Below, one piece after another: positions 1 through 12,587 of a stretch of 12,587 nt of DNA; the first letter of the stretch is position 1; each line of letters opens with the position of its first letter. The DNA lies in NCBI GenBank assembly GCA_049510745.1, contig JBEKYR010000075.1:1-12587 (forward strand), in the 5' to 3' direction. Made by a program: the position numbers and the translations under genes. The notes under the pieces were generated by a model. That model searched no databases. It saw nothing but the letters and a program-made list of their open reading frames with translations, and was not told the DNA's origin. The DNA comes from Verrucomicrobiota bacterium (lineage in GTDB: Bacteria > Verrucomicrobiota > Verrucomicrobiia > Limisphaerales > Palsa-1400).

Positions 1-33
1 GCCTTGGGGGTGCAAGTCCCTTCATGCCCACCA
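1..33 (+). tRNA. 3' part of a tRNA cut by the window edge (likely the same short-arm Leu type as the next two)
   Basis: T-arm GGGGG-TGCAAGT-CCCTT, then CATGCCC-A-CCA. The preceding GCCTT matches the variable region of the tRNA at 255-338. Anticodon is outside the window. Confidence 0.75.
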
Positions 34-137
34 GCCTTCGCTTGCAGCGCAGCCAGAGCAAGGCTGCCGCGTCGAAGCGAAGCGAAGACGGGCTTTCTGA
101 CCCGTCCCACCGGGCTTCGGCTTGGCAGGCCATTTCG

Positions 138-222
138 CGGCGACTGGCTTCAGCGGGAAGAGCAGACCCCGGCGACTTAAAATCGCCGAGTCTTCCGGGT
201 GCAAGTCCCGGGTCGCCGACCA
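138..222 (+). tRNA. tRNA-Leu(TAA), atypical (short variable region, enlarged D region)
   Basis: Acceptor CGGCGAC/GTCGCCG, anticodon arm GGCGA-CTTAAAA-TCGCC, T-arm CCGGG-TGCAAGT-CCCGG, A73 plus encoded CCA. Confidence 0.85.
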
Positions 223-402
223 ACCTTCGCTCGCCGAGCTACGGCTTGGCAAGCCGGCGTGTGGTTAATCGGGAACAGCAGACCGGTTCGACTCAAGATC
301 GAACAGCCTTGGGAGTGCAAGTCTCCCCACGCCGACCAGCCTTCGCCAAGCCTACGGCATGGCAAGCCAACCTTCGCTGCCCAGCTACGGCTGGCAGGCC
401 AA
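223..402. repeat. REP-like spacer repeats (copies at about 223-255, 339-369, 370-402)
   Basis: Consensus GCCTTCGC-N3..7-GCTACGGC-N1..3-GGCA(A/G)GCCA, which carries GTAG on the minus strand. Further copies at about 112-132 (partial), 2389-2422, 2632-2665, 4869-4901 and 5147-5172. Confidence 0.75.
255..338 (+). tRNA. tRNA-Leu(CAA), atypical (short variable region, enlarged D region)
   Basis: Acceptor CGGCGTG/CACGCCG, anticodon arm TTCGA-CTCAAGA-TCGAA, T-arm GGGAG-TGCAAGT-CTCCC, A73 plus CCA. Confidence 0.85.
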
Positions 403-405
403 TTT

Positions 406-434
406 GGAATGTCAACCGGACAAGCGATCCGGCC
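406..434 (+). pseudogene. 5' fragment of a tRNA-Ser-like gene (acceptor strand and D arm only)
   Basis: GGAATGTCAACCGGACAAGCGATCCGGCC closely matches the first ~30 nt of tRNA-Ser at 2426. No anticodon arm, T arm or 3' acceptor strand follows. Confidence 0.7.
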
Positions 435-530
435 ATGTCATACTCTACGACATCGGGTGCTGAACAAGGAGGGGGAAGGGTTCAGGCGAAGATTCGTGCG
501 GGACTCAGCCGTTTTGCCCCGTTGCCCAGG

Positions 531-1778
531 TCATCTGATCGTAGCTGCCACCCCCAGAATCTGCCTTCCGATCGAATCCCTCAACTCTTTAGGCACGACG
601 TCCCTCTGTTCAAGGGTCTTCCATGCGGCAACAGTGCGCTCGGCCGTCTCGACGGCGATCCGCCACAGCGGACTTGCCGGAATCCGCGCCGTGTCCGCAA
701 AGCGCCGCATCTGGTCGGGAGTAATTTCAGAAAGGCTGCGGCTGCCGCCGAAGTTCAGCGCCAGTCTGTCGTTCGGAATGTACGGGAGCGTAGCGACAAA
801 ATCGTAGCCCGGCGAGAGCACGGGAGTGCGCCGGTCGGGGTACAGGAGCGACCAGTTCTTCAAGTGCATGTCGGCGTTGCCGATCAACACTGAGAAGATG
901 AGACGGCGGACGAATTCCCAGACGGCGTCGTCGCCCGCTTCGGCCCAGAGGACGGAGGCGATATTCGCGTAACTGCGGTATTTATACTTGTCGTTAGGAA
1001 ACTGTCCGAAGACTTGCGCGAAATCTTCCATGTGGACGGACTCCCCGCCTGACAAGCGGTCGAAGCGCCGGACGGCCAGAGCCTGGCCCCCGGGCTTACG
1101 CGCCTCTTCCGGGAGGCCCTTGATGTCCGCCATCGCCACGAGGCGGTTCTCGGGCACGGCGATGCCGACGCGGCGCGCCAGTTCGAGCATGGCGAATTCG
1201 TTCTCGGGGACAGCCGCGAAACGGGCGGACGGCAGCTTGACGATCCATGATCCGCCCATGCCGCCCACGGGGATGGTCAGTCCGCCAGAGGCTTCCATGA
1301 GAGCGGAGAACTTCAACTGCACCCCAGCCAGGGAAAAGCGCAGCGCCCCTTCGCGGGGATGATCGCCGTCATGATGATCATCTTCATCTTGGTGGTGAAG
1401 GCCGGCTTGCTGCGCCTCGCCTTCCGGCGGCGTGACCACAAGCGCGCCGGGGAGATCGGCGCCGAGCACGGCCAGCAAGAAGAATTCGCGCTCGGGATCA
1501 ACTCCCGCCAGCTTCGCGAGGTATCCACGCAGGTGTCCTTCGGGCAGCAGGTTCGAGAAGAACGGCGGCACGCGGCGGGGCACGGGGCGCAGAGTTGTCA
1601 CAAGCCCGCCGGTGCGGCCCTTGAAAGAAAGGCTCAAGGTTGGGCGCTGCGGATCGTCGATGTAGCCCTGCTCGAATGCGAAGAGCTGGCGGTCGCCCGC
1701 GAGGCGAGTGATGACACCGATTTGGCGCCCATGCAGGTGGACGAAAAGCGCGTTGAGCTTTTTCGGGTCAAACTTCAT
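531..1778 (-). CDS. hipA: HipA-family serine/threonine kinase toxin (type II TA) with N-terminal HipA coupling domain
   Basis: Motifs FFSNLLPEG, SLAGVQLKF (P-loop), ENE, RRFDR, HMEDFAQ, GNADMHLKNWS and SPGYDF. Start taken at ATG 1778 (MKFDPKK), which overlaps the upstream HTH gene. Confidence 0.93.
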   Translation of the reverse strand: MKFDPKKLNALFVHLHGRQIGVITRLAGDRQLFAFEQGYIDDPQRPTLSLSFKGRTGGLVTTLRPVPRRVPPFFSNLLPEGHLRGYLAKLAGVDPEREFFLLAVLGADLPGALVVTPPEGEAQQAGLHHQDEDDHHDGDHPREGALRFSLAGVQLKFSALMEASGGLTIPVGGMGGSWIVKLPSARFAAVPENEFAMLELARRVGIAVPENRLVAMADIKGLPEEARKPGGQALAVRRFDRLSGGESVHMEDFAQVFGQFPNDKYKYRSYANIASVLWAEAGDDAVWEFVRRLIFSVLIGNADMHLKNWSLLYPDRRTPVLSPGYDFVATLPYIPNDRLALNFGGSRSLSEITPDQMRRFADTARIPASPLWRIAVETAERTVAAWKTLEQRDVVPKELRDSIGRQILGVAATIR

Positions 1779-2142
1779 CGTGCGGTTCCCCGGTTGTGTC
1801 CTCGCTGGCGTCATCGGCATAGAGGGAGCGCTCTTCGCCCTCGCCGGGCTGGTCGTTGAGATGGTCGCGAATCAGGGACTGCACCACGGGGACGAGGGCA
1901 CGCGGGACCATGAGAAGATCGTGGTCGAGAATGCGGACCAGTTCCAGAAGCGTGTCGTAGCGCGGCACGATCTTCCCGGACTCGATGCCGGAGACGTGCC
2001 TCTGGGTCAGACCGATGCGGCTGGCCAGGTCTCTCTGAGACCAGCGGCGCTTCGCGCGCGCCTCCTTCAGAGATCGGCGCAACTCCTCCGGGAGGCCGTT
2101 CAGACGCAGCGTTTTGATGTCTTTATTTGCATCATCATTCAT
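1768..2142 (-). CDS. XRE/HipB-like helix-turn-helix antitoxin
   Basis: LKEARAKRRWSQRDLASRIGLTQRHVSGIESGK is an XRE HTH. Acidic C-terminal tail. Lies directly upstream of hipA and overlaps it. Start at ATG 2142 or 2145. Confidence 0.9.
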   Translation of the reverse strand: MNDDANKDIKTLRLNGLPEELRRSLKEARAKRRWSQRDLASRIGLTQRHVSGIESGKIVPRYDTLLELVRILDHDLLMVPRALVPVVQSLIRDHLNDQPGEGEERSLYADDASEDTTGEPHDEV

Positions 2143-2145
2143 CAT

Positions 2146-2230
2146 TGATACAATAAAATATATCTGGATGAATTGCAAGTGATGCCTTACATTACATTGA
2201 ACTCGCAGTCTGATATAACCAAAGGTATCA
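2146..2230 (-). promoter_or_regulatory. Putative sigma70 promoter and two palindromic operators for the hipBA-like operon
   Basis: On the minus strand, TTGCAA (2178-2173)-17 bp-TATTGT (2155-2150). Palindromes TGATA-N10-TATCT (2146-2165) and TGATA-N10-TATCA (2211-2230). Confidence 0.6.
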
Positions 2231-2293
2231 CCGATTACCTTGCCCGGTTTAAGACGGCACCAAGGGACGGGAGTTTGCGGCGACCATTCTGTC

Positions 2294-2388
2294 GCCCGTG
2301 TAGCCCAAGGCAGAGGGTGTTTGCGCACGGCCACCGCTCAAACCTCCGCCAGTGCAGGTGTCCCGACGAGTCCGGACCACGGGCACCA
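2294..2388 (+). pseudogene. Degenerate tRNA (probably Leu CAA of the same short-arm family as 4793-4865)
   Basis: Intact acceptor GCCCGTG/CACGGGC plus ACCA, D region TAGCCCAAGGCAGAGG, a CTCAAAC loop without a pairing stem, CCAGTGCAGGTG shared with Leu(GAG). The T arm is disrupted by an 18-nt palindrome. Confidence 0.65.
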
Positions 2389-2425
2389 GCCTTCGCTCGG
2401 CGAGCTACGGCTGGCAGGCCAATTT

Positions 2426-2517
2426 GGAATGTCAACCGGACGAGCGGACCGGGCCTGTTTGCTAAACAGCGCGCTCCTGGAAACGGGAGTGTGGTGCAAG
2501 TCCACGGCATTCCGCCA
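2426..2517 (+). tRNA. tRNA-Ser(GCT)
   Basis: Acceptor GGAATGT/GCATTCC, anticodon arm CTGT-TTGCTAA-ACAG, long variable hairpin CTCCTG-GAAA-CGGGAG, T-arm TGTGG-TGCAAGT-CCACG, G73 plus CCA. Confidence 0.88.
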
Positions 2518-2539
2518 GCCTTTGCAGGCGGCCACCATC

Positions 2540-2631
2540 GCGCGTTTAGTTCAAAGAGAACCGTCCAGCTTATAACTGGAGTCGCACTAGATGAGTGCCT
2601 GGGTCCGGAGCGTTACCGGAAACGCGCATCA
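2540..2631 (+). tRNA. tRNA-Ile(TAT)-like with long variable arm; 3' end ATCA
   Basis: Acceptor GCGCGTT/AACGCGC, D stem GTTC/GAAC, anticodon arm TCCAG-CTTATAA-CTGGA, variable hairpin GCACT-AGATG-AGTGC, T-arm TCCGG-AGCGTTA-CCGGA. Confidence 0.72.
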
Positions 2632-2670
2632 GCCTTCGCCCTTTGGGCTACGGCCTGACAGGCCATTTCC

Positions 2671-2748
2671 GTCCCTGTGGTGTAGCCCAGCCAACACGCC
2701 TGCCTCTCATGCAGGAGATCACCGGAGCAAAGCCGGTCAGGGACGCCA
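2671..2748 (+). tRNA. tRNA-Glu(CTC)
   Basis: Acceptor GTCCCTG/CAGGGAC, anticodon arm CCTGC-CTCTCAT-GCAGG, T-arm ACCGG-AGCAAAG-CCGGT, G73 plus CCA. Confidence 0.85.
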
Positions 2749-2756
2749 ATTTTCAC

Positions 2757-2793
2757 GCCCCCAAAGCATTTTGAGCGATGCACTCCTTTGGTA
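2757..2793 (+). tRNA. 5' half of interrupted tRNA-Thr(GGT)
   Basis: GCCCCCA acceptor strand, D stem GCAT/ATGC, anticodon stem strand CTCCT and loop TTGGTA. Its complementary strands lie at 4566-4603. Confidence 0.8.
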
Positions 2794-3113
2794 GCTGCAA
2801 AAACAAAAAAGTGGCGATTCCTTCGCCCTCTTTTTGCGTTTTCCAACTCGGCATTAGAGGAAAAGTCGGGTTGAACATATTCGTGGCCTTGAGCGGGCTT
2901 GCGGCGTCTGCACGCCGGAACCGGGTGCCGGAGGCCGGCACAGGCGCTGCCCCAGCGCCCAAGCTTTGTTGCGCGGGGGCCGTCGTTGGTCACACGAACC
3001 GTCCTGGGTTCTGCCACCCCGGCTCGGGCGCGAGCCCTCTGGACGGATGATCCGGCGAGCAACGCGCCGCGTTGACGACCGGACCTTCGGCAACCCTGCC
3101 GAGTCGGTTGCAA

Positions 3114-3944
3114 CTACTTCTCCACCGCTTTGAGCTTCGCGTCGATTTCCTCGAGGGCAAAGCCCTCGGCGGCGATCCGGCGTTGGGCATCGGTCAGCAC
3201 CAACCAGGGAAGACTCGCGATGCCCGTGACCCAGGCCGTTTGCTCTGATTCCTCCGCCACTTGGCCCACGGGGAACGGGAACGCGTTCGAAGTTTTCCAT
3301 TCCTGGAAAGAACGGCTGTCGATGACGGCGGCCTGCACACCCAGGACCGTGAGGCCCTTCTGCCGTAGCGCCTCGTGCTGCCCGATCACTTGGCGGACCA
3401 AATGCCGGGACGGACGCTGTTGGCTGTCGAAAAGGCAGAGCAGGATGGGCTTGTTGGTGGGCGCCGCGTCGCTCCCCAGGCCCAGCGGAGCCAGGTCCGG
3501 CAGCGGGTCGCCCTCGGCGACGACGTGCAACGTGGCGAAGATGTTTTTCAGCATAGCCCTGACCTTCGAGTCGGCACCCGGCGCCTTGGCGTCCGGGGAC
3601 GGAAGCTGAATCGTGAAGGCGACGGGATACTTTTCCACCAGCCAGAGCCGAAAGGCCCGGCCGTTCAGGCGGTAGTCCACGATAAGGTTCTTTACCTTTC
3701 CAGACGCGGGGTCGCCGCCAATTCCTGTGAACGGTTGCGCGATCGTGACCGACAACGCATCGCCCGACAGGTGCTGCCGCAGGAATGCGGTGACATCGCT
3801 CCAGGCGTCCGTGGTGCCGATGAAGGCTCTATCGATTTGCAGCGTGTCCTTGGCCACGAGCCCGTTCGCCACGAGCGCGGAGACGACAACCAGGATGGCA
3901 GGCAAGACCCGCAATCTCCCCGGGCGGACGTTGATCCTGTGCAT
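3114..3944 (-). CDS. Secreted protein: signal peptide, DUF3395/lectin-like domain and thioredoxin-fold (redoxin-like) domain lacking CxxC
   Basis: Basic and hydrophobic N-terminus; GGDPASGKVKNLIVDYRLNG motif. C-terminal GDPLPDL...ILLCLFDSQQRPS...LTVLGV...SLPWLVLTD resembles a TlpA/AhpC-TSA fold. Confidence 0.7.
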   Translation of the reverse strand: MHRINVRPGRLRVLPAILVVVSALVANGLVAKDTLQIDRAFIGTTDAWSDVTAFLRQHLSGDALSVTIAQPFTGIGGDPASGKVKNLIVDYRLNGRAFRLWLVEKYPVAFTIQLPSPDAKAPGADSKVRAMLKNIFATLHVVAEGDPLPDLAPLGLGSDAAPTNKPILLCLFDSQQRPSRHLVRQVIGQHEALRQKGLTVLGVQAAVIDSRSFQEWKTSNAFPFPVGQVAEESEQTAWVTGIASLPWLVLTDAQRRIAAEGFALEEIDAKLKAVEK

Positions 3945-4235
3945 ACGCCCAGTCTAATAAACCTCCAGTCCAAGTGTCACGCTGTTTATGAAACGAATAC
4001 TCGTCCTGGGCGCGTGACAGAATTCTTCGGCTACTCCGCTAAGCAGGTCTGCATAAACATTTTGACAGCGCTGGTGTGAAAATGGTGTGTGCAAGCGGAG
4101 GTGATTATGGGGTTGTTGCATCTGACATGTCGCCAGCGTGGGGAACTCATGACTGAGCGAGACGAAGCTGCTGATACAGCGACGTATCGGCGTGTGGTCG
4201 GTCTTTTGGCCGTGGCCGACGGAGTGCCACCCTCA

Positions 4236-4482
4236 CATGTGTTCCTATGCCGCTAGCAGCATAGTCGCCACAGCACTGCGATGGACCTATTTCGACATGG
4301 CGTCGACCGATCTGTCATTGCCCTCTGGCTTGGACATGAATCCATGGAAACGACGCAGGTTTATCTACACGCAGATATGTGAGCTCAAGGAGGAGGTGCT
4401 AGCCAGAACAGAGTCGTTCAACGGGCACCAAGGCCGCTATCGTCCAAAGGATAAACTGCTGGCCTCCCTTCAGAGCCTGTGA
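4236..4482 (+). pseudogene. Tyrosine recombinase C-terminal remnant (RIT third-recombinase type)
   Basis: Manual translation gives HVF[21-nt insert with stop]RHSTAMDLFRHGVDRSVIALWLGHESMETTQVYLHADM, a frameshift at 4380, then ELKEEVLART...RYRPKDKLLASLQSL*. This contains the HxxR, LGH and catalytic Tyr boxes. Confidence 0.88.
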
Positions 4483-4565
4483 TTATGCCGAATCCAACAC
4501 CTGAGAAAGCTGTGATTTAGCCGGAGCACGTAGTCCCACTCGGCATAAATTGGTTCCCGGCATTA

Positions 4566-4603
4566 TGGGAGCCAGTTCGGTGCAATTCCGAGTGGGGGCT
4601 CCA
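4566..4603 (+). tRNA. 3' half of interrupted tRNA-Thr(GGT)
   Basis: T-GGGAG pairs with CTCCT (2783-2787). T-arm TTCGG-TGCAATT-CCGAG. TGGGGGC pairs with GCCCCCA (2757-2763). T73 plus CCA. Confidence 0.8.
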
Positions 4604-4631
4604 GATCGGTTTGGCGGTCGTCCACCAACCA

Positions 4632-4703
4632 CGCAGTCGAGCCAGCGCTCAGGCAGGCGTCATAAGCCAGCCACGCCCAGGGCAGCACTGGGGACTGCGA
4701 CCA
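4632..4703 (+). tRNA. tRNA with CAT anticodon (Met or Ile2), reduced D arm
   Basis: Acceptor CGCAGTC/GACTGCG, mini D hairpin GAGC-CAGC-GCTC, anticodon arm CAGGC-GTCATAA-GCCAG (one mismatch), T-arm CCCAG-GGCAGCA-CTGGG, ACCA. Confidence 0.65.
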
Positions 4704-4706
4704 TTC

Positions 4707-4784
4707 GCCTCCATGTCCCGATGCATCGGGACGGATTTCTTTTGTAAAGAAACCTCGCCGGAGCGTCCCCGGCTGGAGGCTCCA
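4707..4784 (+). tRNA. tRNA-Thr(TGT) with D arm replaced by a perfect palindrome
   Basis: Acceptor GCCTCCA/TGGAGGC, anticodon arm TTTCT-TTTGTAA-AGAAA, T-arm GCCGG-AGCGTCC-CCGGC, T73 plus CCA. Confidence 0.7.
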
Positions 4785-4792
4785 TTTCCTTT

Positions 4793-4865
4793 GTTCGCGT
4801 AGTCCAACAGCAGAGACACGACGTCGAGAGCGTCGCCAGTGCAGGTGCGATTCCTGCCGCGGGCA
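4793..4865 (+). tRNA. tRNA-Leu(GAG), short variable arm, CCA not encoded
   Basis: Acceptor GTTCGCG/CGCGGGC, anticodon arm CGACG-TCGAGAG-CGTCG (C33), variable CCAGT, T-arm GCAGG-TGCGATT-CCTGC, A73. Confidence 0.75.
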
Positions 4866-4907
4866 TCCGCCTTCGCCGTTGGGCTACGGCGGGACAAGCC
4901 ATTTTCC

Positions 4908-4981
4908 GGCCTGCAAGCTTTAAAGTGAAGCCGCGGTCTTTTAAGCCGTGGAACCCGGAGCATTACCGGGGCGGGCCACCA
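4908..4981 (+). tRNA. tRNA-Lys(TTT)
   Basis: Acceptor GGCCTGC/GCGGGCC, D stem GCTT/AAGC, anticodon arm GCGGT-CTTTTAA-GCCGT, T-arm CCCGG-AGCATTA-CCGGG, ACCA. Confidence 0.85.
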
Positions 4982-4983
4982 TT

Positions 4984-5058
4984 TGCCGGGTCGTCTAATT
5001 CGTAGGACATCGCCCTTTGAAGGCGATTATGCTGGTGCAAATCCAGCCCCGGCAGCCA
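4984..5058 (+). tRNA. tRNA-Gln(TTG)
   Basis: Acceptor TGCCGGG/CCCGGCA, anticodon arm TCGCC-CTTTGAA-GGCGA, T-arm GCTGG-TGCAAAT-CCAGC, G73 plus CCA. Confidence 0.88.
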
Positions 5059-5063
5059 ATTTC

Positions 5064-5137
5064 CGCTCGGTAGTGAAATAGAATCACGTCTGGCCTACAC
5101 CCAGAAATCGGAGGGGCAGAACCTTCCCGGGCGACCA
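5064..5137 (+). tRNA. tRNA-Val(TAC)
   Basis: Acceptor CGCTCGG/CCGGGCG, D stem GTGA/TCAC, anticodon arm TCTGG-CCTACAC-CCAGA (C33), T-arm GGAGG-GGCAGAA-CCTTC, ACCA. Confidence 0.8.
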
Positions 5138-5206
5138 ATCTTTGCCTTCCGGGCTACGGCTCGGCGGGCCATTGTTTGCCGCGCCACCGCGCAAAGCGCG
5201 ACGGCG

Positions 5207-5281
5207 GGCCTCGTGGCGTAATCAGGAGCGCGCCGGTCTCTGAATCCGGAGGACTTGGAGCAAAACCAGGCGAGGCAGCCA
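5207..5281 (+). tRNA. tRNA-Gln(CTG)
   Basis: Acceptor (G)GCCTCG/CGAGGC(A) with 1:72 mismatch, anticodon arm CCGGT-CTCTGAA-TCCGG, T-arm CTTGG-AGCAAAA-CCAGG, G73 plus CCA. Confidence 0.82.
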
Positions 5282-5348
5282 ATTTCCCCATGCCAATACA
5301 CGAGAGGTTTGCCGCGCGTTGGGCGTATTGCATCGGCCTGCCCTGCGG

Positions 5349-6053
5349 TCAGCGCGTGTGTTTGGCGACGACGCGGTAGCGTGACCACGTCACGCTGCCC
5401 GGCAATTGTTTTCGCGACAGGAGGCGAAGAGTGGCAGCGGCTTTGGGCGGCGGGTCGCCGGGAATATCGAAAAAGCTCGAGATGCCAACGCCGCCGTCAG
5501 CGACCGGCACGGTGACGTGGCTGATTTCATCGACAAGCCCGGCGTGGAGCATGGCGCCGTTGAACTTTCCGCCGCCCTGGAGCATCAGCTTGCGCAGATG
5601 AAAATGGGTGCCGAGTTTGCGAAGGGCAACGTGCAAGTCAACTTCCTTCTTGCCGCAGAAGAGGTAGGAGACGCCGGCGGACTGGAGGTGCGCCAGATAA
5701 TCGTCGCCGACGCGCTCGGTGACAAGCAGGACAACATGATCACCGTCCACTTCATTCTCCTGGAAGCGCAGAACGCCTTTCGCATCCACACCGATGGCCA
5801 GTCGTTTGGCCTTTTTGTCGGCGATATGGTCACAACGAACGACCGGCTTCTTGGCGCGGGGCAGCTTCACGTTTCGGCCGGCAAATTCCTTCATCGTGGT
5901 CGTGCCCACGAGCCAGGCGCCGATGCCAAAGCTGGCCGCCGTGGTTTCGAAGAGCGTAGCGCTGTCTTTGCGGCCGGGAAGTTTGCCCCAGCGATCGCCC
6001 AGGATTTTGCCGTCGATGGTCGTACACATGTGGCAGATGACGTAAGGTCTCAT
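5349..6053 (-). CDS. RibD C-terminal domain / dihydrofolate reductase-family protein
   Basis: N-terminal RPYVICHMCTTIDGKI and C-terminal LMLQGGGKFNGAMLHAGLVDEISHVTVPVADGG are typical RibD_C motifs. Confidence 0.88.
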   Translation of the reverse strand: MRPYVICHMCTTIDGKILGDRWGKLPGRKDSATLFETTAASFGIGAWLVGTTTMKEFAGRNVKLPRAKKPVVRCDHIADKKAKRLAIGVDAKGVLRFQENEVDGDHVVLLVTERVGDDYLAHLQSAGVSYLFCGKKEVDLHVALRKLGTHFHLRKLMLQGGGKFNGAMLHAGLVDEISHVTVPVADGGVGISSFFDIPGDPPPKAAATLRLLSRKQLPGSVTWSRYRVVAKHTR

Positions 6054-6273
6054 GATTTTCTCCAGAGTTCGAATCCTTCAATGCCAACATGCGCCAAAAC
6101 TGTGCCGAAGGCCAGCCGGAAGCATACGCCAGAATGTGCGGACATTTCCCTTTCGTTCCTCTGGGCAGGACATTGAACGATGATCGGGAAACGTTTCGAT
6201 CCCGCCGTCGGCGAATCCTCAACAAAGAACAAACACCTCACCGCGGAAAGCGCGAGCCATGTGCAAACATTTT

Positions 6274-6858
6274 ATGAACGACATACTGAACAAGTCGATG
6301 GTGCTGGTGCTCAACCGCAACTGGCAGGCCGTCAACGTCCGCACGCCGCAAGAGGCCTTCTGCATGATGGCGACGAACGTGGCGACCGGCCTGGAAATCG
6401 AAGGCGAAAACCACATTCGTCCCGTCTCTTGGGACGAGTGGATCACGCTGCCCATTCGTCCGCAGGACAATGCGGTGCAGACCGTCCGTGGCCCGATCCG
6501 CGTGCCCACGGTGATCGTGGCTGTGAATTACGCCAAGGTGCCCAAGAAGCGCCCGAAGCTGTGCGCCCGCGCCATCCGAGAGCGCGACGGCAACCGCTGC
6601 CAATACACCGGCCGCGTGCTGCGCCCCGACGAAGGCAGCATGGATCACGTCCTGCCCCGCTCGCGCGGCGGCAAGAACGCCTGGGAGAACCTGGTTTGGG
6701 CCGGCAAGGACGTGAACGCCCGCAAAGGCAACCGCCTGCCGCACGAGGCCGGTCTTAAGCTGCTGTCGCTGCCGCGTGCGCCGAAGGAACTTCCGGCGAC
6801 TGCGGTCATTCGCAATGTTCACGGCGTTTATGAATGGAAACTGTTCCTAAACGAATAA
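6274..6858 (+). CDS. HNH endonuclease (McrA-like)
   Basis: VLVLNRNWQAVNV N-terminus and RDGNRCQYTG...SMDHVLPRSRGGKNAWENLVWAGKDVNARKGN. Start at ATG 6274 (alternative 6259). Confidence 0.9.
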   Translation: MNDILNKSMVLVLNRNWQAVNVRTPQEAFCMMATNVATGLEIEGENHIRPVSWDEWITLPIRPQDNAVQTVRGPIRVPTVIVAVNYAKVPKKRPKLCARAIRERDGNRCQYTGRVLRPDEGSMDHVLPRSRGGKNAWENLVWAGKDVNARKGNRLPHEAGLKLLSLPRAPKELPATAVIRNVHGVYEWKLFLNE

Positions 6859-6947
6859 ACAAGGGCGAGCGGGCCTTCAAGGCTCGCTCTTCCAAAAAAA
6901 GAGGATAAATTACAAGTTAACACGCTCGGTGAGCGAGACGCGCCGAT

Positions 6948-7919
6948 ATGGAAACATTGAATATTAATTCCCGCCACGGGTTGGCACGAGATCAACATGG
7001 CAAATGGTCGTTCAGCGAGGAATCCATGCCGTACCGTCCGCAGGAAGGCTTCCACAAAGTATTCAACAACAGCGTCGTCCAGTATCTAAATTGCTTTGAC
7101 AGTGCGTTTCGAGCTGCGAAGTCGGCGTGCGAATGCGAGTTCGTTTTCACATTGCTTGGCGTGAAGGGAATGATGGAGATGAGCTGGGATCCTTTCGAAA
7201 CGACGCGGCTCGCAATTCCTGCAATGGTCAAACTTCACGCAAAAATCGAAGACTTTGAGACACAACGACATCTTGGACTGTGGACTTACGGCCACATTAT
7301 TGAAGCATCGGAACCTTATGAACGCCTCGCAAATCTCATCGCGGTTTCTCAAGGGGAACGTTCCAAGATCTCCCGGTTTCCTCCGAGCAAAAATGGACGA
7401 CCGCAGAGCCCGGGCGAGAAGATTCGGAAGTTGGATCAAATGGCAAAAGCTGCGGGGCTTCCGAATGTCGTAGATCCATTAAAGGAGGTCTGGGATCGAG
7501 AGTTACGGAATTCCATTTTCCACGCAGACTATGGTCTGCACGGGGATTCTGTAGTGATCCCATCTGGTCCGCGAAAATACAGCCACGAACAAATTATGAC
7601 GATCATCAATCGCGCCCTAGCTTATCATCACGCTTTCACTAAGTTAATGGAAATCTACAGAGAGACATATGAACGGCCAATCACTGTCCCGGTTCACCCG
7701 CGTTTCAGCAACTCCCCCGGCGAAAGAGCCACAATTGTGGTTAGAGAAGGAGTTGGTGCAATTGGACTCAAACATTCATGGACCGAGGATGAGATTCGTC
7801 GTGGTCACGTTGCGTGGTTCTTTGGCATCGTGTTCTTGGAGGAAGGCAAACAGCTATCAACCAATCACTCAATCAATTTCTTCCATGCCGACGGAAAGGG
7901 TGAGCATGTTCCTATTTAA
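6948..7919 (+). CDS. Hypothetical protein with HEPN-like RxxxxH motif
   Basis: Long, lower-GC ORF. ELRNSIFHADY at about 7500-7532 follows a helical-looking region. The start may be later (ATG 7026). Confidence 0.7.
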   Translation: METLNINSRHGLARDQHGKWSFSEESMPYRPQEGFHKVFNNSVVQYLNCFDSAFRAAKSACECEFVFTLLGVKGMMEMSWDPFETTRLAIPAMVKLHAKIEDFETQRHLGLWTYGHIIEASEPYERLANLIAVSQGERSKISRFPPSKNGRPQSPGEKIRKLDQMAKAAGLPNVVDPLKEVWDRELRNSIFHADYGLHGDSVVIPSGPRKYSHEQIMTIINRALAYHHAFTKLMEIYRETYERPITVPVHPRFSNSPGERATIVVREGVGAIGLKHSWTEDEIRRGHVAWFFGIVFLEEGKQLSTNHSINFFHADGKGEHVPI

Positions 7920-7940
7920 GAAGACTCGATTCCTCCATTC

Positions 7941-8850
7941 ATGAACCCCAAAGATTTTCTGCGACTCGGCGTTCCTCTTGGCGCGGCCACTCGGCGGGCG
8001 ACGGATTTTGTCGCCAAGTTCATTTTCGGTGGGGGCGATAAGTCGCGGCTGCATGAGGAAGTAACGGCCATCATCGCCAATCCGTCGGCCTACGCGGGCG
8101 ACCGGCTGCGCGGCGAATTCGCGAAGGCATTGCTCAAGGGGCTGCTCCACCGCGCGTAGAGCCCGTGAAATACCAGCAGTGGGGTGACGGTCTTGAAAGA
8201 GACGCGGTGATGCAAATGGAGAAAACGTGTCTGTTGCCGGTTTCGGTGGCGGGCGCATTGATGCCCGATGCTCACGTTGGCTACGGCCTGCCGATTGGCG
8301 GCGCGCTGGCAACGGACAATGCCGTGATTCCTTACGCCGTCGGCGTGGACATCGCCTGCCGCATGAAAATGACGGTGTTGGATATTCCATTGCGCGACTT
8401 GGAGCAGAAGCAGGACCGGCTGACCCGCGCCATCGAGACGGAAACGCGCTTTGGCGTCGGCGCGACGTTCCGGGATCGCCGCGTCCACCAGGTGATGGAT
8501 GCCGATTGGGCGACCAGCCCGGTGACGAAACAGAACAAGGATCGCGCATGGTCGCAACTGGGCACCAGCGGGAGCGGAAATCATTTCGTCGAGTTTGGTT
8601 TGTTCACGTCGCACTCAAAAATCAACGATCTTGAGCCGGGAACCTATGTCGCGCTCCTGTCGCACAGCGGCAGTCGCGGCACGGGCGCGGCGGTTTGCGA
8701 TTACTACAGCAAGATCGCGTTCGCGCAATTTCCAGATTTGCCCAGCGAATTGAAACGTCTTGCATGGTTGTCGCTCGATTCACAGAAAGGGCAGGAATAC
8801 TGGAACGCGATGGAATTGATGGGGCGTTACGCCGCGGCCAATCACGAACG
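7941..8850 (+). pseudogene. rtcB: RtcB-family RNA ligase, frameshifted near 8138-8141 and C-terminally truncated
   Basis: Motifs MPDAHVGYGLPIGG, VGVDIACRM, QLGTSGSGNHF and HSGSRG. The ORF at 7941-8159 joins via ...ALLK/AAPPRVEPVKYQQWG. Homology ends after YAAANHE, where the frame runs into the antisense strand of the next gene. Confidence 0.88.
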
Positions 8851-8856
8851 GTTCGC

Positions 8857-10392
8857 TCAAGACGCCCTCTCATGGGACAAGGTGAACAACGCCGCGCACA
8901 GGACAAAGAAAAGAAAAATAACGGAATAGATTTGGAATGGAAAGTCGTAGCGGGCATAGAATAAGCAGCCTCCAAGGGCGGCCCAAAACAGCAGGGCCAG
9001 GGACGCTTTCGCGTGAATTCCGCGCGCGACAAACCAGTGGAAAAGGACGATACACAGGGCCAGAATGATCAGCGCGCTGCCCAGCCAGCCGAAGGTAATG
9101 AGAGTTTCCAACCAATCGTTGTGCAACTGCGCCGGCCAGTACTCTGCCGGGTCCGGCCGATAGAGTTGGAAAAGCGGTCCAAAGGTCCCCGGCCCGGTCC
9201 CGTAGAGGGCGCAATCGTCGGCCATCGGACGCGCCATGTCGTACATTTGATTGCGGCCCTCCAGCCCCGCTTCCAATTCGCGGCCCGCCAGGCGCGGCCC
9301 CAAACCCTCCCAGCCGACCAGCGCGCTGAATCCAAGAACCACCGCCAGGCCGGCTGCGATCGCGACCTTGGTTTTGACGTCTTCCTTGGGCTGGGCCGAC
9401 CAGAGAACGGCGGCGGCCAAAGCCAGGTTCACAACCGCCACGGCGGCGCCCATTCTGCTGGCTGAGATGATCGGGCAGGCCGCCATAATCATCGCGCACA
9501 CCAGCACCAAGTGGCGCGAACCTATGCCGAAAGCGTCACGGCGGCTGACCTTGCGGCGGGCGGAACGTTCCAATGTCCACCACAACCCCAGCGAGACAGG
9601 CCAGAGCAGGTTGAAATACTGGGCCGCATTGGAACGGTAGGCGTAGGGTCCGAACTGGGCAAGCGCCTCGGGGTTGTCATGCGTGGATTGGATAAATAGG
9701 AGCAGTGGCGTTCCATCGATTCGTTGAACAATGCCTTCAAGGCCGAGCAGCCCGCCGTTGATCGTCAGAACCCACAGCAGCCGCCTCAGGCGTTCGGGCA
9801 GCAGGCTTTCGCGCCGGCGATGCGGGTCGCCGAACTGGCCGCGTTCGGCGCGTTCTTCATCGGGCGTCTTGCCGAGCAACCAATCCCGCGCGGCCCAAAA
9901 CGACAGAGCGATCGCCAGGTAATTGCAGAAGGCTTGCCAACTGCTGGCGCTGTCGTAACTGTGCGGCAACCACGAAACGAAGGAATGGTACTCCAGACTT
10001 GCTACCGCGGGGTTGTAAATCGAGCGGCTGTTCAAGGCGCTGACAAAACAATAGCCGATGAGCAGCACGGTGAGCGCCGCCAGAACGCGGCTGAGAAAGT
10101 GCCCCGTTGTTGCCCTTTCGCGCTCGCCGGACCCGCCGGTTGGCTCCTCGTCGCGGTTCCGGTCCCAGCACGGATTGCGATAGCCGGTCAAAAACCGGAT
10201 GATCAATTTGACTCCGAGCAGCAGGCCCAGGAAATAACCAGCCCCGTTCATCGCCCATATCGACCACGGCTGGGTCGTTCCAAAGGCCCAGGGGCTGAAA
10301 AGAACCATCAAATAAAGAAGGCCCTCAGAGATGGCGTCGCACGCCCTGTATAGCCGAAGTGTTCTCAGTGAAAGACTCAGCGGCTTGAACAT
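8857..10392 (-). CDS. O-antigen ligase-family (Wzy_C/WaaL-like) membrane protein
   Basis: Multiple TM segments; FGPYAYRSNAAQY, SASRMG, GTGPGTF and HNDWLETLITFGWLG motifs. Confidence 0.88.
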   Translation of the reverse strand: MFKPLSLSLRTLRLYRACDAISEGLLYLMVLFSPWAFGTTQPWSIWAMNGAGYFLGLLLGVKLIIRFLTGYRNPCWDRNRDEEPTGGSGERERATTGHFLSRVLAALTVLLIGYCFVSALNSRSIYNPAVASLEYHSFVSWLPHSYDSASSWQAFCNYLAIALSFWAARDWLLGKTPDEERAERGQFGDPHRRRESLLPERLRRLLWVLTINGGLLGLEGIVQRIDGTPLLLFIQSTHDNPEALAQFGPYAYRSNAAQYFNLLWPVSLGLWWTLERSARRKVSRRDAFGIGSRHLVLVCAMIMAACPIISASRMGAAVAVVNLALAAAVLWSAQPKEDVKTKVAIAAGLAVVLGFSALVGWEGLGPRLAGRELEAGLEGRNQMYDMARPMADDCALYGTGPGTFGPLFQLYRPDPAEYWPAQLHNDWLETLITFGWLGSALIILALCIVLFHWFVARGIHAKASLALLFWAALGGCLFYARYDFPFQIYSVIFLFFVLCAALFTLSHERAS

Positions 10393-10618
10393 GGGGGGAC
10401 GCTATTTGGAATGGTTCCAGGGACCATAAATTTGCGGATGATTAAGCGATGGTCCGCGGCAATTGACAAGTCTCAACTAAAAACAAATAGGACCATCCAC
10501 TATCTCTTCGTCAGGGCGATGGTAAAATCGTCGGATTGCACTACACATATCCTTGTCATCTGCATGAGCTTAATCCACAGTGACTTACAGCGTTTTCGCC
10601 GGCTGTGAATCGAAATTA

Positions 10619-10752
10619 TGTCGGTTTCATTTACACTTTCCGGCTCACCTGATGTGATCGAGGCAAAGGAATCGATAGTTTTAACTCGTTGATACGCAAT
10701 GTGTAATATGCATAGATGGAACGTCAGAAAGTCTGCTGGCACAACCCTTGCT
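10619..10752 (+). promoter_or_regulatory. sigma54 (-24/-12) promoter with a candidate upstream activator site
   Basis: TGGCAC-AACCC-TTGCT at 10737-10752, and TGT-N11-ACA (TGTCGGTTTCATTTACA) at 10619-10635, upstream of the PEP-CTERM-like gene. Confidence 0.72.
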
Positions 10753-10820
10753 GACAATCACTATGAGATATGCCGTTTAAACAGCATTAGAGAGTGAAAA
10801 AAACCAACTTGACATCGAAC

Positions 10821-11546
10821 ATGAATAAATCAATCACAGTTTTTGCCGGGATGGCGGCGGTCGGAGCGCTCGTTGTTTTGGCCCAGAGTGCGCAGAGCCA
10901 AGTCCTCTACGATAACACCACAGGCAACACAGGTTACAATCTCAACTTTGCCGGGTCAGCGGGCAATGAGGTGGATCTCGCCGGCCCGTCCTCCGCCAAC
11001 TATCTGATCACCGGCTTCATCTTCCAGTACGACTTTGTTGGCACTGGCACTCCAACCGGCAGTGTGGATCTGAGCTTCTACAGAAACGACGGTTTTCCTC
11101 AATATCACGGCTATTACACCCCAGGCACGCTGCTGTATGATAGTGGGCCATTTTCGCTCACGAGTTTCACCTCGCCCGCGGGAGCGCAGCTCGTTTACGG
11201 TGTGCCAGACTTGGCCGGCGGAACCGGATCGGGAGTCGTTGCCGGCGGAGTCATTGTGCCAGATCAGTTTACCTGGGTTGTCACCTTCTCCGACTTGGGC
11301 GCAGGTGATAGTGCGGGCTTGGGTCTTTATAACCCGCCGACGGTCGGTGACAATTACGGCAATAATGCTTGGATGAATGATGGCAGCGGCTGGGTATTAG
11401 AAGCGACCATTCCTCCTTATCCTCCCGCTGAATTTGGCGCTAGAATCACCGGTTCACAGGTGCCGGATTCTTCCTGCTTGCCACTCTCCGTATTATCGGT
11501 GGCAATGGCTTTTGGCTGGATGAAGCGGTTCCAACGCCGCGGGTAA
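10821..11546 (+). CDS. Secreted PEP-CTERM/VPDSG-CTERM-like exosortase substrate
   Basis: Signal peptide (…LAQSAQSQ), Gly/Ser/Thr-rich body, C-terminal VPDSS followed by a hydrophobic helix and basic tail KRFQRR. Alternative start GTG 10794. Confidence 0.8.
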   Translation: MNKSITVFAGMAAVGALVVLAQSAQSQVLYDNTTGNTGYNLNFAGSAGNEVDLAGPSSANYLITGFIFQYDFVGTGTPTGSVDLSFYRNDGFPQYHGYYTPGTLLYDSGPFSLTSFTSPAGAQLVYGVPDLAGGTGSGVVAGGVIVPDQFTWVVTFSDLGAGDSAGLGLYNPPTVGDNYGNNAWMNDGSGWVLEATIPPYPPAEFGARITGSQVPDSSCLPLSVLSVAMAFGWMKRFQRRG

Positions 11547-11570
11547 TCCTCTCTCTATTTTCAATTCTCG

Positions 11571-11603
11571 AACAAGGCCCGGTTGTCCGGGCCTTGTTTT
11601 TTT
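11571..11603 (+). terminator. Rho-independent terminator
   Basis: AACAAGGCCCGG-TTGT-CCGGGCCTTGTT hairpin followed by a T run, just after the stop at 11546. Confidence 0.85.
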
Positions 11604-11761
11604 GACAACACCGTTCAGCAGGTCGATTAACTCGCTGCCGCCTGCTTCCGGCACCGCCATCGTGGTGCGAATCATCGCAGAGAATGCTGGCCGCAGGGCT
11701 TTCGGCGCGGCCGCAGGGGTTCAAAGCGCCAATACACCCGAACACTTGGCGCAAGTGCCTT

Positions 11762-12587
11762 TTAATGGAACAGAAGGCGGTAAAACGAGATCAATCCGCC
11801 GGGAACGACACTGATGCTCCAGTCGGCTCCATTGGTGGAGACCGCGTTAGTCGCGGCAGACCAGGCCACCGGTGGGGTCAAATTGGTGGCGTAGAGCAGG
11901 ACAAATCCCGCCGGATTGGTTGGCCATAAGGCCGTAATTGTCGGCACGCTGCTTGTTGTCACGATGCCTGTAAGGGGATTGGTGACCAGGATCGTTTGCG
12001 CGCCCGACTGGCTGATGCTGAACGAGGGAGGAGCAACCACGGTCGCATCGAGGCCAAATTCCCAAGTTGTGTTGGCGCTGTCCGTCGCGGTGGCGGAAAG
12101 ATACCTCCCCGGCCGAATCCCCAGAGGGAGAGTCAGGATAAAAGTGGCCTGGCCATTGGTGCCGGTTGTGATGTTGGTCGAACCGATGTATATCAAGCCC
12201 TCCCCATAGCCGGACGGGTTCGGCGCCACGTTCTCGTAGAACTGGATCAGGAATTGTCCATTGGCATAGGTGCTCATTGAGCCTTGAATGTCCGTGGTGA
12301 CACCGTCGCTGACCACCTCCGTCAAGGTAACCAAGTTGGAGATGGTCACCCCGGAGTTCCCGAGAACGATCCCCCAGCCTGCATTGGAAAAGATGCTGTT
12401 GCGGCTGACAAAGTTGCCCAGGCATCCGGCGCGTATCCGCACTCCGTCATACTGAGACGTTGTTGCATACGCGATGTGATTATCCGCGGCCGGAGTCGAT
12501 CCGCCCACCCAATTGTTGCCGGCCGTATTGAGAAAATCGATGTTGTGCCACTGATTGCCCAACGGGCTGGCGCCATCGGCCTTGGTT
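11762..12587 (-). CDS. C-terminal part of a large beta-helix-type surface protein (starts outside the window)
   Basis: The frame stays open to the window edge (TKADGASPLGN...). It contains N-x-I/V-GG beta-helix-like repeats, NSIFSN, GYGEG...YLSATATD, and a Verrucomicrobia-type end WPTN...ATNL...FYRL. Confidence 0.8.
   Translation of the reverse strand, partial: TKADGASPLGNQWHNIDFLNTAGNNWVGGSTPAADNHIAYATTSQYDGVRIRAGCLGNFVSRNSIFSNAGWGIVLGNSGVTISNLVTLTEVVSDGVTTDIQGSMSTYANGQFLIQFYENVAPNPSGYGEGLIYIGSTNITTGTNGQATFILTLPLGIRPGRYLSATATDSANTTWEFGLDATVVAPPSFSISQSGAQTILVTNPLTGIVTTSSVPTITALWPTNPAGFVLLYATNLTPPVAWSAATNAVSTNGADWSISVVPGGLISFYRLLFH

Follow-up and report, generated by a model that had tools for sequence, protein, structure and literature searches.

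An eroded array of spare tRNA genes, the 3′ half of a likely mobile operon with a candidate pan-codon attenuator, in a Limisphaerales genome

Why should a bacterium with a dispersed set of tRNA genes carry a second, clustered set ahead of genes for an HNH endonuclease and the RNA ligase RtcB, and what might switch such a cluster on? The question is raised by a 12,587-nucleotide stretch of DNA from a Verrucomicrobiota bacterium of the order Limisphaerales (assembly GCA_049510745.1, contig JBEKYR010000075.1). This stretch, called the window throughout, is the entire contig C75 of a 5.6-Mb genome in 85 contigs. We think it likely that the window holds the 3′ half, now eroded, of a probably mobile operon of spare tRNA genes, an L-array of Limisphaerales type, which would serve as a translation-rescue cassette under the control of a pan-codon attenuator.

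The tRNA array and its upstream half

The original prediction placed about 16 co-oriented tRNA genes or fragments upstream of genes for HNH, a protein with an RxxxxH motif and RtcB. For comparison we took 75 loci encoding the array-type HNH subfamily; the closest HNH relatives come mostly from Limisphaerales and Verrucomicrobiia metagenome assemblies. A structural scan together with comparison with these relatives bears out the count, yielding 16 co-oriented tRNA pieces, equivalent to 14 genes, in window 1–5281:

1–33, plus strand: 3′ end of tRNA-Leu(CAG); the complete gene lies at C74 11231–11314
138–222, plus strand: tRNA-Leu(TAA), intact-looking, with a long D region, a short variable arm and G55
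255–338, plus strand: tRNA-Leu(CAA), intact-looking
367–438, plus strand: duplicated spacer hairpin and 5′ stub of tRNA-Ser(GCT), 88% like 2386–2458, marking the hipBA insertion
2294–2388, plus strand: degenerate tRNA of Leu(CAA) type, with a small palindrome in place of the T arm (compared with L040 and L044)
2426–2517, plus strand: tRNA-Ser(GCT), intact-looking
2540–2631, plus strand: tRNA-Ile(TAT), with a long variable arm, ending in TCA where relatives have CCA
2671–2748, plus strand: tRNA-Glu(CTC), intact-looking
2757–2793, plus strand: 5′ half of tRNA-Thr(GGT), interrupted at the anticodon loop; the halves are joined in relatives L050 and L061
4565–4603, plus strand: 3′ half of tRNA-Thr(GGT), recognised by comparison with relatives
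4707–4784, plus strand: tRNA-Thr(TGT), with a palindrome in place of the D arm that is common to L046
4792–4868, plus strand: tRNA-Leu(GAG), with C33 and the encoded CCA lost
4908–4981, plus strand: tRNA-Lys(TTT), intact-looking
4984–5058, plus strand: tRNA-Gln(TTG), intact-looking
5064–5137, plus strand: tRNA-Val(TAC), with C33, intact-looking
5207–5281, plus strand: tRNA-Gln(CTG), the last tRNA of the array

ARAGORN finds only four tRNAs in the window and Rfam five, because the tRNA genes of the array are non-canonical; relaxing ARAGORN to a score of 80 returned noise (10450 calls). The structural scan detected eight units in window 1–6250, as against 0–2 in each of 40 stretches of 6.25 kb drawn at random from the genome, and eight tRNAs that lie fully inside the window look intact and end in CCA. 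Elsewhere in the genome, outside contigs C73–C75, there are 47 short housekeeping tRNAs, to which the array is supernumerary. The two sets differ in sequence. A G occupies T-loop position 55 in 624 of the 640 CCA-ending array tRNAs of related loci but in one of 46 housekeeping tRNAs, and C33 replaces U33 in 108 of 684 array tRNAs (window and L037–L111) but in none of the 47 housekeeping tRNAs of this genome, mostly in Ala, His, Leu(GAG), Thr(GGT) and Val(TAC), some of these being possibly ARAGORN register calls. The encoded CCA is kept in 640 of the 684 array tRNAs of related loci, as are the stems.

Several features of individual tRNAs and spacers recur. In the tRNA-Leu genes (window 138–338 and C74 11231–11314) an enlarged D region without a long variable arm is conserved, and the long variable arm of tRNA-Ile(TAT) is common to relatives. 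Short palindromic repeats directly follow tRNA CCA ends in the spacers at 30–135, 220–255, 340–400, 2390–2420, 2630–2665, 4870–4900 and 5140–5200, and the same repeats occur after a housekeeping tRNA-Thr on C4 and in the rRNA spacer of a relative.

The window does not hold the start of the array. Its first 60 bases are identical to the final 60 bases of contig C74, where the operon begins, and the array starts approximately 4.8 kb upstream of the window. C74 contributes 21 further tRNA units, one of them shared with the window, which brings the array to about 34 genes. Provided that a disrupted gene is taken as Asp from its synteny with C73, the anticodons of these genes account for all 20 amino acids. 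From 5′ to 3′, the operon consists of a promoter-like site, a 56-codon leader, a terminator, a second small open reading frame (ORF), a boxA-like 5′ arm, the tRNA genes, a 3′ arm, HNH, a variable slot and rtcB. Also on C74 are a remnant of Ro60, a metallophosphoesterase and a four-helix-bundle insert. Contig C73 (locus L001) carries a second, paralogous array that has the same leader and in which Ro60 is intact, and array remnants are present on C80, C21 and C9. A long co-oriented, non-periodic run of supernumerary tRNA genes, patchy in its occurrence and linked to HNH, identifies the C74–window array, on its sequence features, as an L-array.

Three further observations concern these contigs. 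ARAGORN calls a 'Stop (tta)' tRNA on C73 (L001:2821–2897), for which a suppressor reading is doubtful because its T loop is canonical and its anticodon loop irregular. On C74 (locus L002), a gene for 205 amino acids without a Pfam or NCBIfam match lies between duplicated stubs (L002:9133–9750) and is seen in 12 of the 75 loci, usually following Ro60. A short Lys/Arg-rich ORF downstream of tRNA-Ser(CGA) (L002:8017–8170) is covered by contigs from relatives' RNA libraries.

Leader peptide, candidate attenuator and closing helix

The original prediction proposed looking upstream for regulators such as RtcR, WYL or TROVE proteins. No regulator of the RtcR or WYL type was seen, and RtcR and RtcA are not among the scanned ORFs of the window; the upstream DNA appears instead to hold a cis-acting leader-peptide attenuator. 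The leader region (C74 5825–6520) is patchily spread: of 301 sampled genomes of the order, which is represented here mainly by metagenome assemblies, 94 have a match, in many cases in the 3′ block alone. Among 45 near-complete copies, the leader ORF (49–59 codons, 56 on C74) is intact in 44 and its frame is kept in 42, whereas that of the adjacent spacer is not. A terminator follows approximately 23 nt past the stop codon.

All 20 amino acids are present in 40 of the 44 intact leader peptides. Segments of 56 residues from the proteome reach the full set in 467/20000 cases (2.3%) and stop-free base shuffles in 389/4400 (8.8%); column resampling gives 48%. Adding the leaders of 40 further regions gave 67 unique peptides, 52 of which have all 20 (left out were three regions that lacked a leader core, three in which no ORF was detected and three with an unresolved start). 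When only the 25 peptides below 60% identity are considered, 16 retain the full set, against 12% expected by column resampling, and Tyr is found in every one of them, at 13 different columns. Single Tyr, Trp and His residues shift between columns while coverage persists, a pattern that fits selection for amino-acid coverage and not for a protein fold. The codons follow suit, the leaders using 31.0 of the 32 half-box families and 42.3 distinct codons compared with 29.2 and 39.0 for random synonymous codons. Three of 20 short ORFs directly before strict terminators in this genome have all 20 residues; these are the two array leaders and one unrelated ORF.

The final codons of the leader are complementary to the 5′ arm of the terminator, with all 405 cells pairing (19 by G-U), and in two loci the three strands change together. 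In folding predictions, the antiterminator formed in seven of eight transcripts ending before the 3′ arm of the terminator, and the terminator in eight of eight complete ones. Since the end of the leader pairs with the terminator that follows, the leader is likely to be a pan-codon attenuator. According to this model, a ribosome that reaches the leader stop codon would cover the antiterminator strand and allow the terminator to form. A ribosome slowed at any codon, whether by starvation, tRNA cleavage or antibiotics, would leave that strand free to pair with the 5′ arm of the terminator, and transcription would continue into the array. Such a leader would be a direct and easily tested answer to the question of how an array senses failing tRNAs.

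Promoter-like −35 and −10 boxes, read from alignments, lie a few bases before the leader ATG. A conserved motif at L002:5835–5865, approximately 95–120 nt before the ATG in about 30 copies, is possibly an activator site or the left end of the element. Between the terminator and the boxA-like arm is a second small ORF of about 62 codons (L002:6200–6470), the frame of which is kept in 39 of 45 copies and the last 130 nt of which are near-invariant, with conserved hairpins. We considered this ORF as another pan-amino-acid sensor and rejected it, as it is not enriched (18.1 vs 18.1 amino acids). Rfam searches of C74 5700–9200, covering the leader and any Y RNAs of the Ro60 remnant, returned tRNAs and three weak non-tRNA matches below cut-off, and at gathering level across six loci they returned tRNAs and one marginal nematode sRNA. 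A phage origin of the leader was not borne out, in that viral contigs gave no exact match to its core. Outside the order, an exact search of 300 genomes for the terminator pattern found nothing; diverged forms would escape both searches.

The transcript beyond the leader has a second conserved feature, a 21-bp helix that would close around the tRNA genes:

6219–6239, plus strand: 3′ arm of the closing helix, the exact complement of C74 6467–6487 (the boxA-like 5′ arm at the end of the leader)

Every one of 68 testable loci has the 3′ arm directly before HNH, compared with none of 14 controls. Both arms are present in 37 loci, 0.8–16.3 kb apart, and one further locus lacks the 3′ arm. Across the 37, the cells of the helix comprise 607 Watson-Crick and 21 G-U pairs, 13 two-sided changes and 25 mismatches, mostly at the helix ends, with clean two-sided changes in five loci (L087, L162 and L183–L185). 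The first nine bases of the 5′ arm match boxA-like spacer words of relatives' rrn operons, while the tail differs, and this genome's own rrn operon is absent from the assembly; the boxA copy of relatives' 16S leaders, read by eye, sits in the strand complementary to the 16S trailer. Genes for RNase III and the NusB family are present in the genome. The closing helix suggests that tRNA arrays borrow the transcription and processing of rRNA operons. Nus-type antitermination at the boxA-like site might carry polymerase across the array, and the long-range helix might act as a processing stem as in pre-rRNA.

Linked genes, insertions and rival explanations

Downstream of the 3′ arm are the remaining parts of the operon:

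6259–6858, plus strand: array-type HNH endonuclease gene, intact, identified by Pfam
6863–6892, plus strand: hairpin past the HNH stop, conserved in relatives and forming the left edge of the variable cargo slot
7941–8846, plus strand: rtcB pseudogene, identified by Pfam, frameshifted near 8147 and cut off after approximately residue 301 of 463

The neighbourhood survey that the original prediction called for upholds, as far as genomic context goes, the link between these genes and tRNA arrays. At least three co-oriented tRNAs lie upstream in 51 of the 55 HNH loci that have more than 2 kb of upstream sequence, with 687 tRNAs upstream on the same strand, six downstream and eight on the opposite strand. 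A close rtcB (within 6 kb after HNH) is found in 24 of the 55, in 18 at full length. By comparison, a core HNH paralogue (39% identical) has no tRNA in 14 of 14 loci, when tRNAs are seen at 12 of 15 array-type loci of relatives, using 1.5-kb flanks. Among the array tRNAs, relatives often have Ro60 and a second RtcB: Ro60 lies upstream in 17 of 37 loci, which vindicates the guess of an upstream TROVE protein (intact on C73, a remnant on C74), and an RtcB of the PrfH-associated family lies inside the array in 13 of 37 (e.g. L050:2791–3921), with no PrfH partner matching over cut-off in five of five genomes.

The rtcB gene of the window is present as predicted by the earlier reading, but it does not extend to full length. 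Compared with the 463-residue copy on C36, near which no array was seen, it has a one-base frameshift near 8147, for which an assembly error is possible, and it ends at 8846; judged from its reading frame, this copy is dead. Its neighbours are the HEPN-like gene described below and an O-antigen ligase. In L052 and L104, rtcB breaks off at nearly the same place as at window 8846 (residues 299–304), with different sequence behind. HNH would spread the cassette, and RtcB and Ro60 would repair cut RNAs. The upstream flanks of 49 element copies fall into 46 clusters, varied sites of the sort that horizontal spread would leave, and no joint of the 3′ arm back to the 5′ arm, indicative of circularisation, was among the joints listed. 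In RNA data, 24 runs contain 7–14% of the words, and relatives' contigs in seven runs cover parts of the leader, tRNAs, Ro60, HNH and rtcB; these contigs carry no strand, ends or level and have no silent control, and we counted them as no evidence on expression.

The other genes in and around the array are as follows:

531–1775, minus strand: hipA-family kinase toxin gene (cargo; Pfam HipA_C and Couple_hipA)
1768–2142, minus strand: hipB-like antitoxin gene with a helix-turn-helix (HTH) domain (cargo; Pfam HTH)
2794–4564, no strand assigned: inserted cargo block, with a thioredoxin-like ORF (3114–3944, minus strand) and a tyrosine-recombinase remnant (4257–4379, plus strand)
5349–6053, minus strand: RibD_C-family gene (Pfam), inserted before the 3′ arm and found in two of the 75 related loci
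6948–7919, plus strand: gene for a likely RNase of HEPN fold (49% GC), cargo of the HNH–rtcB slot

The HNH, HipA and RtcB identities assigned originally are supported by Pfam matches, and all 111 aligned homologues (of 120 listed) keep the RxxxxH motif (R187, N188 and H192) unchanged. The RxxxxH protein gave a structure model with a predicted local distance difference test (pLDDT) score of 95, and its top three VIA matches are all HEPN chains: Csm6 (Z 7.3, root-mean-square deviation 4.4 over 127 aligned residues) and HepT-type proteins (Z 6.8 and 6.6), scores that fall under the tool's trust level for helical folds. Foldseek gave no match at E ≤ 0.001, Pfam matched none of the 111 homologues, and NCBIfam and PADLOC had no match to the protein. 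The protein is likely a HEPN RNase.

Are these toxin-like genes parts of the system? The original prediction took HipA and the HEPN-like protein as such. HipA is indeed present in the array, accompanied by a HipB antitoxin. The RxxxxH protein, HipA, HipB and the thioredoxin-like ORF occur in none of the 75 related loci, and in 300 other genomes of the order the RxxxxH protein was not found at the cut-off used, nor HipA at E ≤ 1e-60. Because of this absence, HipBA and the HEPN-like gene are cargo; we rejected them as core parts, and from their distribution they are recent passengers, confined to this genome among those searched. The hipBA genes are flanked by two copies of the spacer and tRNA-Ser 5′ end, an insertion duplication, and the thioredoxin-like block with its recombinase remnant interrupts tRNA-Thr(GGT) at the anticodon loop. 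The slot between HNH and rtcB is shorter than 170 nt in six of 30 loci and otherwise holds mostly different, unrelated low-GC genes, some of them defence-like (DUF4238 and DUF3800, and RNxxxH-type motifs in L062 and L063). The RibD gene, hipBA, the HEPN-like gene and the thioredoxin-like block all came in as later insertions. The further suggestion of the original prediction, that this is a decaying backup-translation and RNA-repair locus, is upheld by our reading.

The rest of the window is unrelated to the array. Window 8857–12587 contains an O-antigen-ligase-like gene with a paralogue on C71. It also contains an ORF (10794–11546) without a family match, the C-terminus of which we take to resemble a PEP-CTERM-type tail, and at its far end the terminal part of a large, secreted-looking protein.

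How else might the locus be explained? It could be a tRNA damage/repair island whose HEPN and HipA toxins form a single conflict system with RtcB and the array. All the parts are together in this genome, the RxxxxH protein likely has a HEPN fold, and the slot before rtcB often carries low-GC genes of which some are defence-like. However, neither toxin gene occurs at the 75 related loci, neither was found in the 300 other genomes of the order, hipBA is antisense to the array and framed by its insertion duplication, the slot is empty in some loci and mostly filled with different genes in others, and the rtcB of the window is broken. As a conserved unit such a system is largely refuted, and we regard it as quite unlikely. 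Alternatively, the leader could be a general sensor of ribosome speed or antibiotics, like the upstream ORF (uORF) of whiB7, with full coverage a side effect of RNA structure or ancestry. The RNA of the leader is conserved and strongly structured, its base shuffles alone reach an average of 18.0 amino acids, and the Mycobacterium smegmatis whiB7 uORF has 19 of the 20 (10.1101/2023.06.02.543512). Against this, the single Tyr, Trp and His residues move without loss of coverage, and the second ORF of the same leader, equally conserved, shows no enrichment; this alternative seems to us unlikely. Finally, the inverted repeat might belong to a selfish mobile element, as its DNA end or a site bound by protein, with the array largely silent baggage spread by HNH. 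Varied flanks, several copies and remnants per genome, and frequent decay and insertions would accord with that. Yet the arms lie inside the element, with the leader beyond one and HNH beyond the other, their departures from pairing are mostly G-U-compatible, tRNA stems and CCA ends are kept, and the attenuator is intact in nearly every copy, all of which makes this explanation very improbable.

Against the spare-tRNA operon under a pan-codon attenuator a number of points must be set. The counts overstate independence because the loci are related and a single genome supplies several of them. Fifteen of the 67 unique leader peptides are short of one to four amino acids. The sigma-70 scan gave no promoter at threshold upstream of the leader. 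The covariation of the three strands is based on two loci, and the antiterminator strand was itself sought by fuzzy matching to its consensus, a procedure biased towards pairing. For the closing helix, transition bias confounds the excess of G-U among changes in the 3′ arm (27 of 48), eight of the 13 two-sided cells come from L086 and L179, where a register shift may explain them, and boxA is matched in part. No close rtcB turned up at 31 of the 55 HNH loci, and several insertions interrupt this copy of the array. A more specific version of the spare-tRNA reading is tentative. Here a self-contained mobile cassette would monitor every tRNA decoding family via one leader peptide, and any failure, for example attack by an anticodon nuclease, would yield a full replacement set of structurally recoded tRNAs (with G55 T loops and often C33) that nucleases miss, transcribed and cut in the manner of pre-rRNA and accompanied by Ro60 and RtcB. 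We consider this possible but rather doubtful as a whole.

Relation to known systems

Arrays of tRNA genes with HNH and rtcB, termed L-arrays, are known from cyanobacteria and are stress-induced in Anabaena, and Verrucomicrobia are listed among the phyla that have them (PMC8421152). The array described here resembles the trn operon of Anabaena PCC 7120, with its HNH gene all8564 and co-regulated rtcB, in being a long, co-oriented and patchily distributed array of extra tRNAs that supplements a full dispersed set, with HNH and with rtcB nearby (PMC8421152). In the available text on Anabaena, HNH lies upstream and control is exerted through promoter direct repeats and the TrcR repressor (PMC10272220), whereas here HNH lies downstream, with an apparent leader-peptide attenuator and a closing helix around the tRNAs (PMC8421152, PMC10272220). 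The string 'Attenuat' occurs 0 times in PMC8421152 and PMC10272220, and 'boxA' 0 times in PMC8421152. In the literature searched, which was mostly non-subscription and without supplements, we found no description of an all-20 leader or a closing helix on a tRNA array. L-arrays have long been thought cryptic, and the cyanobacterial repressor is the single described regulator that we found. The combination of tRNA array, HNH and rtcB as an L-array was already known; the features of this locus that tell the most are at window 6219–6239 and directly upstream of the window.

A further parallel is the RNA-repair operon of Salmonella, the name of which we take to be rsr-yrlBA-rtcBA. RtcR controls this operon, which, as here, brings Ro60/Rsr and RtcB together at a stress locus connected with tRNA damage (PMC7790460). 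It differs from the present locus as far as the accessible account goes, in that real tRNA genes are involved here, and RtcR, RtcA and Y RNA were not seen in the two arrays of this genome by Pfam, NCBIfam and Rfam scans (PMC7790460).

The closing helix recalls the leader–trailer helix of rRNA operons, where a boxA-like word also lies in the 5′ strand and stable RNAs are enclosed (PMC10250234), and the present genome has genes for RNase III and the NusB family. In contrast to the rRNA helix as described in the part of that source available, it encloses 0.8–16 kb of tRNA genes and passengers and no rRNA, and its boxA is partial (PMC10250234).

The nearest counterpart of the leader is the uORF of whiB7/wblC in mycobacteria, where efficient translation leads to the terminator and stalling to the antiterminator, the same layout as in the array leader, and where the composition of the uORF determines which starvations are sensed (10.1101/2023.06.02.543512). 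If it works in this way, the array leader would make the supply of tRNAs and the repair of RNA depend on decoding speed, and it could become a portable reporter of tRNA damage or starvation. The whiB7 uORFs, in the accessible text, are variable, Ala-rich and control a transcription factor, whereas the array leader keeps all 20 amino acids, along with almost every codon family, and would gate tRNA and repair genes directly (10.1101/2023.06.02.543512).

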